From assembly GCF_041886205.1 (NCBI RefSeq), contig NZ_CP169029.1: a DNA stretch of 64,000 nucleotides, one strand, 5' to 3'. The position numbers and the translations under genes were made by a program. Shown here piece by piece: positions 11,673 through 53,670 of the stretch (position 1 is the stretch's first letter; each line of letters begins with the position of its first letter). Source of the DNA: Escherichia coli. GTDB lineage: Bacteria > Pseudomonadota > Gammaproteobacteria > Enterobacterales > Enterobacteriaceae. The notes under the pieces are model-generated. The model was not told where the DNA came from and searched no databases. It was given only the letters and a program-made list of their open reading frames with translations.

Positions 11673-13280
11673 CGTGATACTCCTGTTAATGAGCCGCTTC
11701 AGGCAGGACAAAACCCATCGCCGCATCGATAAATAATCTTTCGTCCATCAGTTTGAGTTCTGGCGAAATCACTGGGGTGAAATCCATTTTGTCGAGAATA
11801 TCTTTTTGTAAATCGACGCCAGGGGCGATTTCGATTAAATGCAGTCCGTCTTCTTTCAGCGTGAATACTGCGCGCTCAGTGATATAACGAACATCCAGCC
11901 CTCGCTCGAGAGCGATTTTTCCGCTAAAAGTAATTTCCGGTAGTTCCCGAATAAATTTATTTACCCGTCCTTCCTGGACGATATTCAATTTGCCGTCGGT
12001 AATTTCTGTTTTTAAACTGCCCGCAGTTAATGTGCCGCAGAAAACGATTTTCTTCGAAGTGGCACTGATATCAATAAATCCACCGGTGCCCATGATTTTA
12101 CCATTGAATTTATGCACGCCGACGTTACCGTGCTGGTCGACTTCAGCAAAACTCAAATAACAAACATCCAGACCGCCACCGTGATAAAAATCAAACTGGG
12201 ACGTCATATCCAGAATGGCGCGGGTATTCACGTTCGCGCCAAAGGCGATCCCCTGTGAAGTAATTCCGCCAATCGGACCTGTTTCTACCGTCAGAATAAA
12301 GTCATCAGCACAACCTTCTTCTCGGGCGACCAGGCCAATGCCGTCAGCAATACCGACGCCGACATTCCCCACCGCGCCTTTACGCATTTCGAATAATGCG
12401 CGCCGCGCAACTAATTTACGTTGGTTTAGGGGCAGGCTAAGTTTGGTACTGTCATCAAGGGTGAAGTCACCAGAAATAAAGCGGTTAACCGGTGCACCGC
12501 CATACAGTTGGGTTTGATCCGGATCGACCACCACAATATCCACCAGATAACCCGGAATACGGACAGATTTAGGATGCAGCGTGGCTTTCTTAACCATTTT
12601 CTGCACCTGCATCATCACAATACCGCCGTTATTGTGCACCGCCTGGGCAATAACCAATGCGTCGAGATACATCACCTCATCTTCAAAAGTGGCGTAGCCT
12701 TCGCTGTCGCAGGTGGTAGCGCGAATGAAGGCGATATCTGGCGCAATCGCTTTGTAATAGAGATATTCTTTGTTATCAAACTCGACCAGTTTAATCAGGT
12801 CTTCTTTAGTGACTTCATTCAGTTTGCCGCCTTGCTGGCGTGGATCGACAAATGTCCCGATGCCAATATCACTAATAATACCAGGCTGGTGGGCTGCGGC
12901 GGCGCGTAAGGTTTGTGTAAGTACACCTTGTGGATAGTTATAAGCAATAATTTTATTTTGTTCTGCGAGATCAGAAATACGCGGCGATTGTCCCCAGTGA
13001 CCGCATAATGCCCATTTCACCAGACCTTCTTGCGCCAGCGGACTAATACCGCGATCGGCGCGATCGCCAAGCCCTGTTGGACTAATAATCGATAAATTAC
13101 GTGGCGTTTGAGTCTGTTTATATTTATCAGCAAGAGCAGTAATTAACGTGGTGGCTTCCAGAATACCGCCGCCAGCGCCTAACACACAAAGTGTTGCTTC
13201 GTCGGGAATATAATTCACCGCTTCCGGTGATGCTGCCAACTTACTGATTTAGTGTATGATGGTGTTTTTGAGGTGCTCCA

Positions 13281-13556
13281 GTGGCTTCTGTTTCTATCAG
13301 CTGTCCCTCCTGTTCAGCTACTGACGGGGTGGTGCGTAACGGCAAAAGCACCGCCGGACATCAGCGCTATCTCTGCTCTCACTGCCGTAAAACATGGCAA
13401 CTGCAGTTCACTTACACCGCTTCTCAACCCGGTACGCACCAGAAAATCATTGATATGGCCATGAATGGCGTTGGATGCCGGGCAACCGCCCGCATTATGG
13501 GCGTTGGCCTCAACACGATTTTCCGCCATTTAAAAAACTCAGGCCGCAGTCGGTAA
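13281..13556 (+). CDS. insA: IS1 InsA (transposition inhibitor / N-terminal part of transposase)
   Basis: 91-aa [25 protein letters not shown]...; A6C frameshift motif (TTAAAAAACTC) near its 3' end. Confidence 0.9.
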
Positions 13557-13978
13557 CCTCGCGCATACAGCCGGGCAGTGACGTCATCGTCTGCGCGGAA
13601 ATGGACGAACAGTGGGGCTATGTCGGGGCTAAATCGCGCCAGCGCTGGCTGTTTTACGCGTATGACAGGCTCCGGAAGACGGTTGTTGCGCACGTATTCG
13701 GTGAACGCACTATGGCGACGCTGGGGCGTCTTATGAGCCTGCTGTCACCCTTTGACGTGGTGATATGGATGACGGATGGCTGGCCGCTGTATGAATCCCG
13801 CCTGAAGGGAAAGCTGCACGTAATCAGCAAGCGATATACGCAGCGAATTGAGCGGCATAACCTGAATCTGAGACAGCACCTGGCACGGCTGGGACGGAAG
13901 TCGCTGTCGTTCTCAAAATCGGTGGAGCTGCATGACAAAGTCATCGGGCATTATCTGAACATAAAACACTATCAATAA
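13475..13978 (+). CDS. insB: IS1 InsB reading frame (expressed as InsAB' transposase by -1 frameshift)
   Basis: 167-aa ORF recognised as IS1 InsB. Confidence 0.88.
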
Positions 13979-14202
13979 GTTGGAGTCATTACCCCGCTTC
14001 CTGTGCCGACAGGACCGGCACTCGTCCATTAATACGAGGTGGTTTTACAGGTTTCATTGTTAATTCCTGATTCAGGTGTGATTTTCCCTACGCCAGATGG
14101 AGAATTAGCGCACAGAGACTCACGAAATATTTTTATTAAATACGGTTAACTATATTTTTTTTAGTTCGGCGGGGGAGGGTATTCCCGCCGAAATATTATT
14201 GC

Positions 14203-19032: not shown

Positions 19033-19170
19033 CGTGTAATGGCTGCATGAAATAAACAATAAAATATAAATAACATTATCAGCCTGCTGACGGCTTGAAG
19101 AGAGTCACAGTATCTTGTGCAACATTATTGGAAAGAGTGAGGGGCGAGGTAGCGAAGTGGAAAAATGTTA

Positions 19171-19275
19171 AAAAAAAGCCCATCGTGGGAGATGGGCAAA
19201 GACTACACACAGCAATTCGTTGTTTCACTCAGGGGATTTCCATGCTTATAAATCAATATGTTGATTTATAACCGT
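19171..19275 (-). ncRNA. rprA: RprA small regulatory RNA (RpoS translational activator)
   Basis: Reverse complement matches the RprA sequence I recall (ACGGTTATAAATCAACATATTGATTTATAAGCATGG...CCCACGATGGGCTTTTTTT), including intrinsic terminator; coordinates +/-2 nt. Confidence 0.85.
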
Positions 19276-24713: not shown

Positions 24714-24937
24714 TCCTGACTTAATGCCGCAAGTTCGCCAAATCGACCTGGATTAACCTCCGTCCAGGTTCGATGACCTTCTTAATACTGCTTATCTACC
24801 GCCTGATATTGTTCAAAAATAATACTAATCGCAGTTTGTGTTAAAACGGCGGGTTAGCTTTATGAGATTATTCTTATCGCCCCTTCAAGAGCTAAGCCAC
24901 TGAGAGTGCCGGAGATAAGCGCCGGATGGGGTAGAAA

Positions 24938-24980
24938 CCCTTAAGCCTGTGTCGCACAGACTTAAGGGTTTTCTTATTTC
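24938..24980 (+). terminator. strong intrinsic terminator hairpin (CCCTTAAGCCTGTG…CACAGACTTAAGGG) followed by TTTTCTTATTT; possible 3' end of sRNA RydB
   Basis: Perfect inverted repeat plus U-tract seen in sequence, about 225 nt downstream of the ydiH stop. Confidence 0.6.
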
Positions 24981-42517: not shown

Positions 42518-42903
42518 TGTTACTTACCTGTACGCATTCTTTCGAATTTAGTGTTATCAGATAAGTTTGGTTGAGATTTTTAGAATTTGAGAAATTTCAG
42601 ACAGGGATGAAAAGGGCGCTAACCGCCCTTGATTAAATTCTGTCAGGCGAGTTTTGCCTGATTGATTTGACTCAGTGGCTCATTGACATCGAAAACTTTG
42701 GCGACAACTTCCTCAACGCCGAGATTTTTAAGTCGGGCAGTATGTTTTTCCAGATAGGCAAGGGCGCTTTTTTCATCAGTAAAAAGATAGATCCCACCGG
42801 CTTCGTGGTTCTTTTCACTTTCTGTCCATACCTTCCACAGAAAACCAGGTTCCTGATTAATTGAACCGCCCCGGGTTTCCTGGAGAGTGTTTTATCTGTG
42901 AAC

Positions 42904-43794
42904 TCAGGCTGCCAGATCATCGTTTCCGATGGAAGCATAATAAGCTTTTTCTGCTTCTGCCGGAGGAGTATGGCCCAGCCTTTCCAGCAATCGTCGATTG
43001 TTATACCAGTCCACCCACGTGAGTGTGGCCAGTTCCACTTCTGCACGGTTTTTCCAGCTCTTACGGTGTATTACCTCCGCTTTGTAAAGACCATTGATGC
43101 TCTCCGCCATCGCGTTGTCATACGAGTCGCCTGTACTTCCTGTTGATGCCAGTAATCCGGCTTCCTTAAGCCGCTGTGTGTAGGCCAGCGATACATACTG
43201 AGAACCTTTATCACTGTGATGGACCGTGCCGGACGGTCGACGGGCCCATAACGCCTGCTCCAGTGCATCCAGCACGAATGTCGTTTCCATGGACGATGAG
43301 ACCCGCCACCCCACGATGTATCCGGCAAACACATCAATGATGAACGCCACATAGACGAAGCCCCGCCATGTGCTGACGTAAGTAAAATCAGCCACCCACA
43401 GCTGGTCAGGTCGTTCTGCCACGAACTGACGGTTTACGCGGTCGCCTGCGGCAACGGCTTTCCGGCTGATGGTCGTACGGACCTTTTTACCCCGGAGAAC
43501 ACCGGCAAGTCCCATAACCGCCATGAGACGTGCCACAGTGCATCTGGCCACTCTGATACCTTCCCGTAACAACTGACGCCAGACTTTACGCACACCGTAT
43601 ACCTTGTGATTTTCATCGTATACGCGCTGTATCTCTTTCTTCAGCCAGTCATCGCGCTGCGCACGGGCACTGCGTTTATCCGGATGATGTCGCTGTTGCT
43701 GACAGTGGTAATACGTTGACGGGGCAATATGCAGTTCGCTGCATAGCGGTCCGACCCCGTACTGCTCACGCAGCTTATCCAGCAGTGGCATCAT
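42904..43794 (-). CDS. IS3-family transposase OrfB (DDE integrase core)
   Basis: 296-aa ORF; overlaps orfA 3' end at an A-run consistent with -1 frameshifting. Confidence 0.88.
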
Positions 43795-44117
43795 TTTTTC
43801 CAGAGGCGGTCGAACTCCGCCTTCGCAAAATAAGCGGAAGCCTGGCGAAGGATATCGTTACTGCGGCGCAGTTCACGATTTTCACGTTCCAGCTCTTTCA
43901 GACGCTGACGTTCAGCGGTGGTGAGCCCTCCATCACCGCCCCCGGTATCCCGCTCATGCTGGCGAACCCAGACACGCAGAGTCTCCGGCGTACAGCCAAT
44001 CTTTGGAGCAATGGAACAAATTGTCGCCCATTGTGAGTCATATTCGCTCTGACTTTCCAGAACCATACGGACTGCCCGTTGACGGACTTCGGGGGAAAAA
44101 CGAGTATTTTTAGTCAT
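43791..44117 (-). CDS. IS3-family transposase OrfA (HTH)
   Basis: 108-aa [26 protein letters not shown]... Confidence 0.88.
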
Positions 44118-44368
44118 CCTGTTTACCTCTTTCTCAGGAAGTTTAGTCTCCAGGATTCCCGGGGCGGTTCAAATCGACTCAGCAAGCGGTTTAAGCTGCT
44201 CAGCCATTGCGTCGCCAAATGGGCCATTAAAAGCAAAATGAAGTTGTAACAAAGTTGCCATAGCGATTCTCCTTCTGATAACGCATACGAAGACAGTGTA
44301 AATCTTTTAACGTATTGGATACAGAGAAGAAACAGAGGGAAAAAGGAGAAGACCAGATTAAGAAAATC

Positions 44369-44445
44369 TGGTGCGTCCGAGTGGACTCGAACCACCGACC
44401 CCCACCATGTCAAGGTGGTGCTCTAACCAACTGAGCTACGGACGC
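44369..44445 (-). tRNA. valW: tRNA-Val (GAC anticodon)
   Basis: Reverse complement reads GCGTCCGTAGCTCAGTTGGTTAGAGCACCACCTTGACATGGTGGGGGTCGGTGGTTCGAGTCCACTCGGACGCACCA; valV/valW assignment by position; +/-1 nt. Confidence 0.9.
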
Positions 44446-44449
44446 AGGA

Positions 44450-44526
44450 TGGTGCGTTCAATTGGACTCGAACCAACGACCCCCACCATGTCAAGGTGGT
44501 GCTCTAACCAACTGAGCTATGAACGC
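44450..44526 (-). tRNA. valV: tRNA-Val (GAC anticodon)
   Basis: Reverse complement reads GCGTTCATAGCTCAGTTGGTTAGAGCACCACCTTGACATGGTGGGGGTCGTTGGTTCGAGTCCAATTGAACGCACCA; +/-1 nt. Confidence 0.9.
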
Positions 44527-53117: not shown

Positions 53118-53161
53118 TCCATTTCACTCCAGACCCTAACTTCAGCTCCTGCAAAATCGCA

Positions 53162-53177
53162 AGGTAAACGTTTGCCT
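53162..53177. promoter_or_regulatory. PurR operator-like palindrome (AGGCAAACGTTTACCT) in the purR leader
   Basis: Match to PurR box core about 45 bp upstream of the purR start codon. Confidence 0.6.
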
Positions 53178-53415
53178 TTACACACCTTACGCACAACAAA
53201 AGTGTTGCGGTACGCCGGAAAAACGACACGGAGCGTCAGGAAGGGGTCAATGGCCAGTACGCAAATAGTGTAAGCGTGGAATTTTGGCCGATCTTGACGA
53301 AAAGGGGAAGTGGTAAAAACACTTATCATTATAAATGACGGGAGATTTTTTCATCACAGTGTGTAAAAATGCGTAATATCACTTTTTGTGTGGTAATAAA
53401 AAAGGAGAAAACTTG

Positions 53416-53505
53416 ATGAGCACCGACCTTAAATTTTCACTGGTAACAACGATTATCGTCCTCGGTTTGATCGTGGCCGTGGGTTTGACTGCCGCGCTGC
53501 ACTGA
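53416..53505 (+). CDS. ynhF: 29-aa single-TM small protein
   Basis: ATG preceded by AAAGGAGAAA RBS; translation MSTDLKFSLVTTIIVLGLIVAVGLTAALH; below the ORF-track length cutoff; +/-1 nt. Confidence 0.7.
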   Translation: MSTDLKFSLVTTIIVLGLIVAVGLTAALH

Positions 53506-53670
53506 TTTCCTCTCGAGGGAGCGCGTTCTCCCTCGCATCTCCTTCCTGTTTGTTAGCAAAATGGCAAAAGTGTTTTCTCTTTTTGTTATTTTCATTTTTT
53601 TGTGATTGCTGTCATGCTTTCGCCACTTTAATGAATATCGCGTAATGACGCGAAGAGGTGGAGATAAGGC

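Follow-up and report, generated by a model that had tools for sequence, protein, structure and literature searches.

IS629 and IS1 are two of the best-known insertion sequences of Escherichia coli, and everything described here belongs to their already known biology. IS629, an IS3-family element of Shigella sonnei and E. coli, is 1310 bp long, has 25-bp terminal inverted repeats (IRs), generates a 3-bp target-site duplication (TSD) and carries orfA and orfB in phases 0 and -1. IS1203 and IS1203v of E. coli O157:H7 are near-identical to it. The IS1A and IS1B elements of strain K-12 are 768 bp long, with 23-bp IRs and the heptamer A_AAA_AAC at element positions 307-313. The TSD of IS1 is more usually 9 bp. 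We analysed a stretch of 64,000 nucleotides of E. coli DNA (NCBI RefSeq assembly GCF_041886205.1, contig NZ_CP169029.1; hereafter the window), which contains one complete IS629 and one complete IS1, both simple chromosomal insertions whose transposases are very probably made through programmed -1 ribosomal frameshifting. The IS629 copy agrees with the named element in length, IRs, TSD and the phases of orfA and orfB, and shows no sequence-level difference from it, while IS1203-type copies are about 96-97% identical to the element here. The IS1 copy shares with IS1A and IS1B its length, its IRs, the position of the heptamer and the coordinates of insA and insB', but has a TSD of 8 bp instead of the usual 9 bp. 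The window was searched for additional copies or fragments of IS629 or IS1, and none were found. A Shigella source of the DNA was considered and ruled out, as its YdhS and AroD agree exactly with proteins named Escherichia coli.

The IS1 element comprises the following features.

13226-13993, plus strand: IS1 element, 768 bp, near the 5' end of ydiF and in the opposite orientation to ydiF
13218-13225, no strand, second copy at 13994-14001: IS1 target-site duplication of 8 bp, CCGCTTCC
13281-13556, plus strand: IS1 insA, 91 aa, GTG start (coordinates match K-12 insA1)
13475-13978, plus strand: IS1 insB' reading frame, -1 relative to insA (Pfam DDE_Tnp_IS1)
13532-13538, plus strand: IS1 slippery heptamer A_AAA_AAC (frame check)

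The 23-bp IRs of IS1 occupy positions 13226-13248 and 13971-13993. When the element and 8 bp are taken out in silico, ydiF regains its reading frame. A 9-bp TSD was also considered and ruled out, as removing 9 bp fails to restore ydiF. Compared with its nearest E. coli copies, this IS1 carries a single difference (A instead of G at 13873), which is synonymous and lies outside the IRs; from K-12 IS1A and IS1B it differs by five to six nucleotides, none of them in the IRs. The A at 13873 was present in none of the IS1 copies of 5,426 complete E. coli genomes.

The original prediction had quoted two motifs, the canonical one of IS1 and an A-rich stretch of IS629 over the end of orfA and the start of orfB, and both were found where it had placed them. 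Chance is not the question here, because both motifs sit at the expected positions in well-known elements. The sequence TTAAAAAACTC lies at 13530-13540 on the plus strand and is read as TTA AAA AAC in the insA frame. A -1 shift on the heptamer joins the two frames into a continuous InsAB' fusion of 232 aa (...RHLKK/LRPQ..., the slash marking the junction), identical to a widespread protein annotated as 'IS1-like element IS1B family transposase' (294 contigs), so that the identification of the canonical motif stands. InsAB' contains the Pfam domains Zn_ribbon_InsA, HTH_Tnp_IS1 and DDE_Tnp_IS1, the last over its full length (1-131 of 131, 260 bits), and scores 244 bits with the NCBIfam profile transpos_IS1 against a cut-off of 100. 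A small fraction of the ribosomes translating insA would move back by one base at A_AAA_AAC and continue in the insB' frame to produce InsAB'. In published measurements, A_AA.A_AA.C, the motif used by IS1, is rated as low-efficiency. No stimulatory hairpin was detected after the heptamer, where folding was no better than that of shuffled sequence (z = 0.08), and slippage would take place there with no evident downstream structure.

IS629 is inserted in ydhR and is encoded on the other strand.

42862-44171, minus strand: IS629 element, 1310 bp, in ydhR (terminal IRs and DNA identity)
42859-42861, no strand, right copy at 44172-44174: IS629 target-site duplication, AAT (left copy)
43791-44117, minus strand: IS629 orfA, 108 aa (open reading frame list and translation; Pfam HTH_Tnp_1 at residues 1-87)
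42904-43794, minus strand: IS629 orfB, 296 aa, in the -1 frame relative to orfA (Pfam HTH_21, rve and rve_3)

The terminal IRs match at 23 of 25 positions and end in TGAACC...GGTTCA, the 5'-TG...CA-3' termini of IS3-type elements. The length of 1310 bp is inside the IS3-family range of approximately 1.2-1.5 kb, and the 3-bp TSD inside the range of 3-4 bp. In-silico excision of the element with one copy of AAT yields an intact YdhR open reading frame of 101 aa. Copies 100% identical to this DNA over the full 1310 bp were found in unrelated contexts on many E. coli chromosomes and plasmids.

In several strains of E. coli, IS629/IS1203-type elements have hit ydhR independently of one another. The element follows nucleotide 90 of the gene in the window, nucleotide 102 in strain 23AR0151 and nucleotide 159 in strain 582, and strain F3398 carries one at yet another position. 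Each of these insertions has its own 3-bp duplication, and all share one orientation. IS629/IS1203-type elements may favour this short gene, which adjoins two tRNA-Val genes, as a target.

44372-44445 and 44453-44526, minus strand: tandem tRNA genes (tRNA-Val in matching E. coli annotation)

An Rfam match to the 'bacterial antisense RNA HPnc0260' (44245-44407, plus strand, 112 bits) lies opposite one of these tRNA genes, in antisense, and also partly over the 5' end of ydhR; the model seems to have picked up the complement of the tRNA, not a real small RNA. Elsewhere in the window, full-length Rfam matches were obtained to the known enterobacterial small RNAs STnc550 (53118-53508, plus strand, 396 bits), RprA (19168-19275, minus strand, 118 bits) and rydB (24879-24939, plus strand, 82 bits).

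The orfA stop codon UGA occupies 43793-43791, and the orfB start codon AUG begins one base back, at 43794-43792, which places orfB in the -1 frame. A -1 shift can join the two frames at either of two positions, and both of the resulting fusions are continuous proteins of 404 aa with the Pfam domains HTH_Tnp_1, HTH_21 and rve. The catalytic residues of OrfAB, with codons checked, are D244 (43389-43387), D303 (43212-43210) and E339 (43104-43102), accompanied by K346; the intervals of 58 and 35 residues between them correspond to a DD(35)E signature. OrfAB also matches the NCBIfam equivalog transpos_IS3 along the entire profile (positions 1-369 of 369, 370 bits against a cut-off of 160). Translation across the overlap in the -1 frame, the check proposed with the original prediction, thus gives a continuous transposase with an intact DDE triad. 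Frameshift or nonsense changes in orfB and insB relative to reference copies were looked for, and neither element contains any. The suggestion that both elements are potentially active agrees with their intact open reading frames, IRs and TSDs and with the occurrence of 100% identical IS629 DNA at many loci, all of which is evidence read from the sequence.

The features relevant to frameshifting in IS629 are listed below.

43791-43857, minus strand: overlap of orfA with the -1 frame, which opens at 43857; a -1 shift inside it yields full OrfAB
43826-43830, minus strand: conserved slippery site U_UUU(G), in phase, with ALIL stem-loop I 5 nt downstream
43720-43836, minus strand: ALIL frameshift-stimulating pseudoknot (Rfam RF01497)
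43821-43805, minus strand: ALIL stem-loop I (SL I)
43759-43720, minus strand: ALIL stem-loop II (SL II)
43791-43799, minus strand: A6 run (43799-43794) and, directly after it, the orfA stop UGA (43793-43791), overlapping with the orfB AUG (43794-43792) as AUGA

Exactly two in-phase tetramers of the type Z_ZZN, U_UUU and A_AAA, occur within the overlap. As eight such tetramers are found in phase in the 108 codons of orfA, a slippery tetramer alone is weak evidence, and it is the position relative to a conserved RNA structure that counts. For U_UUU, such a structure is present. The IS629 DNA matches the Rfam model RF01497 over all of its positions (1-117 of 117) with 120.2 bits (gathering score 50), and the same ALIL feature is annotated by RefSeq in identical IS629 copies. 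The last base of U_UUU is 43827 and the first base of SL I is 43821 or 43822; a review likewise places SL I of ALIL a few nucleotides downstream of a slippery motif that is in phase. Six pairs, one of them G-U, can form between the SL I apical loop (GUUCGA, 43815-43810) and the internal loop of SL II (UCGGAC, 43754-43749), at a spacing of 45 nt (the ALIL criterion being 44-104 nt 3'). Both stem-loops were also recovered by folding. In published shift measurements, U_UU.C and U_UU.U rank just behind A_AA.G among the tetramers, and A_AA.A ranks lower.

The A6 run lies downstream of SL I, within the 45-nt linker between the two stem-loops and 34 nt before SL II. At 43802-43789 on the minus strand, the coding sequence reads ...CTC TGG AAA AAA TGA TG..., with the in-phase A_AAA at 43797-43794. 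No stimulatory hairpin was found directly after the run, where folding is no better than that of shuffled sequence (z = 0.06). A slip at U_UUU would give the junction ...SAYF/..., and a slip at A_AAA the junction ...DRLWKK/MMPLL....

The conservation of the two motifs was compared in a scan of bacterial genomes, one per species, with the 17-nt SL I sequence GGCGGAGCTCGACCGCC alone, a pattern that is blind to both slippery motifs and in which SL I is fixed, so that its own conservation is uninformative. We obtained at least 111 distinct SL I matches. Among the matches listed, 72 have an IS3-type 0/-1 overlap according to the corrected filter; the slightly looser first filter retained 76 overlaps among the matches listed, and the motif counts given here are from these 76. 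U_UUU or U_UUC is found at a fixed offset from SL I in 63 of the 76 overlaps among the matches listed. By contrast, only one of the 76, again among the matches listed, has an A-run of four or more after SL I. It belongs to a relative of IS629 in Escherichia albertii, in which the slippery Lys-Lys is kept (AAA AAG UGA). All 20 loci tested passed the Rfam gathering score for ALIL. The exact SL I sequence with the same frame layout was seen, among the matches listed, in IS3-type elements of very distant bacteria, and the groups listed include Proteobacteria, Actinobacteria, Armatimonadetes and Gemmatimonadota. A further 80 IS629 relatives from viral contigs were dropped from the conservation test, being too similar (91-100%) to tell the two motifs apart in conservation.

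A gap-free alignment of 17 diverse ALIL members is consistent with these counts. Its UUU columns are invariant, whereas those below the IS629 A-run are freely variable. In the same alignment, 94% of the cells at ALIL pairs are paired, compared with 30-45% when the partners are slid by one to three columns, and seven pairs have changed on both sides in a compensatory manner. The loop-loop helix is 99% paired and includes one such compensatory pair, C-G in 15 sequences and U-A in both sequences of the IS629 lineage. Because U_UUU or U_UUC at a fixed offset is widespread and the A-run nearly absent in relatives, U_UUU is, as judged from sequence comparison, the conserved slip site of IS629, and the A-run appears as a second, lineage-specific in-phase site.

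From these data we infer slippage at each site and a split of the product between them. Ribosomes translating orfA would slip mainly at U_UUU(G) (43830-43826), stimulated by the ALIL pseudoknot 5 nt further on, to produce an OrfAB with the ...SAYF/... junction. A minority would most likely slip at A_AAA-UGA, the secondary and lineage-specific site, to produce the ...DRLWKK/MMPLL... form. The AUGA stop/start junction would provide the route by which OrfB alone can be made.

The last of these steps could also be taken as the principal role of the junction. It is possible, though on balance improbable, that AUGA serves mainly in translational coupling, with termination of OrfA followed by re-initiation on OrfB, and that all OrfAB comes from U_UUU. 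In 45 of the 76 overlaps among the matches listed, the orfA stop has a constant offset of 28 nt downstream of the SL I start, and most related elements have it in an ATGA or GTGA overlap, irrespective of the bases before it. OrfB of IS629 has moreover been reported as being produced and as lowering transposition. Coupling nevertheless leaves the slippery Lys-Lys run, peculiar to the IS629 lineage, unexplained. It is also compatible with slippage at U_UUU and, in a minority, at A_AAA, and does not exclude it.

It is less likely that the A6 run is itself the IS629 frameshift site, with ribosomes slipping on A_AAA while UGA is in the A site to give ...LWKK/MMPLL.... This was the site expected by the original prediction, and part of that expectation is borne out, since an in-phase A_AAA does directly precede the stop codon and a shift there does give a 404-aa OrfAB with intact DDE residues. 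The complete product exists as a database protein (WP_085959878.1), and the E. albertii relative retains a slippery Lys-Lys. A4T is reportedly one of two IS629 shift sites; Chen and Hu are reported to have described in 2006 frameshift products from both the T4G and the A4T motifs. The choice of the A-run as the expected site is what did not hold, as the conserved slip site is U_UUU with ALIL, about 30 nt upstream. Relative to the A-run, SL I is upstream and SL II starts beyond the usual spacing of 4-10 nt, and a local hairpin is missing after the run. Other ALIL-type elements among the matches listed nearly all do without an A-run and yet keep the T-run, and A_AA.A is a weak tetramer.

Where the IS629 of the window has A6, a natural IS629-like copy, in IMGVR_UViG_2534681674_000028, carries A7 between orfA and orfB. 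The additional base fuses both frames and hard-codes the ...LWKKMMPLL... protein, the very fusion that a slip on the A-run would generate, and this counts in favour of the A-run as the shift site. The seventh A marks either a variant that makes its transposase constitutively or a sequencing error in the homopolymer.

One or both copies might be intact in sequence and still be functionally dead or silent, through a regulatory defect or host repression, which we regard as quite improbable. The private substitution of IS1 at 13873 is in keeping with such a state, but it is synonymous and outside the IRs, and the identity of IS629 DNA at many sites indicates a recently mobile lineage. Finally, although some IS3-family elements use transcriptional realignment, production of OrfAB by RNA polymerase slippage on the A6 or T4 run, and not by ribosomal slippage, was rejected as highly improbable because the runs, only 6 and 4 long, are too short (known cases need runs of about nine or more A or T), and a ribosomal mechanism is suggested by the conserved RNA pseudoknot further downstream.

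Frameshifting mainly at U_UUU, with A_AAA as a secondary site, also bears on how IS629 is annotated. Two different 404-aa transposases are present in public databases for identical IS629 DNA (42904-44117, minus strand), because the shift has been modelled at either U_UUU or the A-run. The U_UUU fusion is on record as 'IS3 family transposase' in 379 contigs, and the A-run fusion is identical to WP_085959878.1, 'IS3-like element IS629 family transposase', in one contig, junction choices (379 versus 1) that are set by annotation software and not by experiment. The IS629 frameshift annotation is corrected accordingly by drawing the shift at U_UUU with the ALIL pseudoknot, and not at the A-run of the open reading frame junction.

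The two IS629 shift products that have reportedly been published fit the two sites found here. Should that two-site report hold, the principal IS629 transposase might even be the A-run product. The chances are about even that IS629 has two OrfAB isoforms that are an 11-residue junction apart and whose ratio could tune transposition. The second, Lys-Lys site would in that case abut the orfA stop inside the ALIL linker, an arrangement missing from nearly all sampled ALIL-type elements. Only the lineage specificity of this second site would then be new, as two IS629 frameshift products had reportedly been described already in 2006. For the strain itself, both elements are complete and so are plausible sources of further insertions and rearrangements; ydhR and ydiF have already been knocked out by IS629 and IS1, respectively.

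The closest relatives of the IS629 frameshift region are IS3411 and the other members of the ALIL family (Rfam RF01497), a pseudoknot family with which the work of Mazauric et al. from 2008 is reportedly associated. IS629 shares with them the match to the full-length model, SL I located 5 nt after an in-phase U-run, and SL II 45 nt further 3', with an apical loop complementary to an internal loop. It differs from the family consensus in the loop-loop helix, where a compensatory U-A and a U-G replace C-G and U-A, and in having an additional slippery run, A6, in the linker, absent from the consensus. IS3, IS911 and IS150 resemble IS629 in the 0/-1 phases of OrfA and OrfB, the fused OrfAB and the combination of a slippery motif with a 3' RNA structure. 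In those three elements the motif is A_AAG or A_AAA_AAG with a hairpin or an H-type pseudoknot, whereas in IS629 it is U_UUU with the ALIL pseudoknot.
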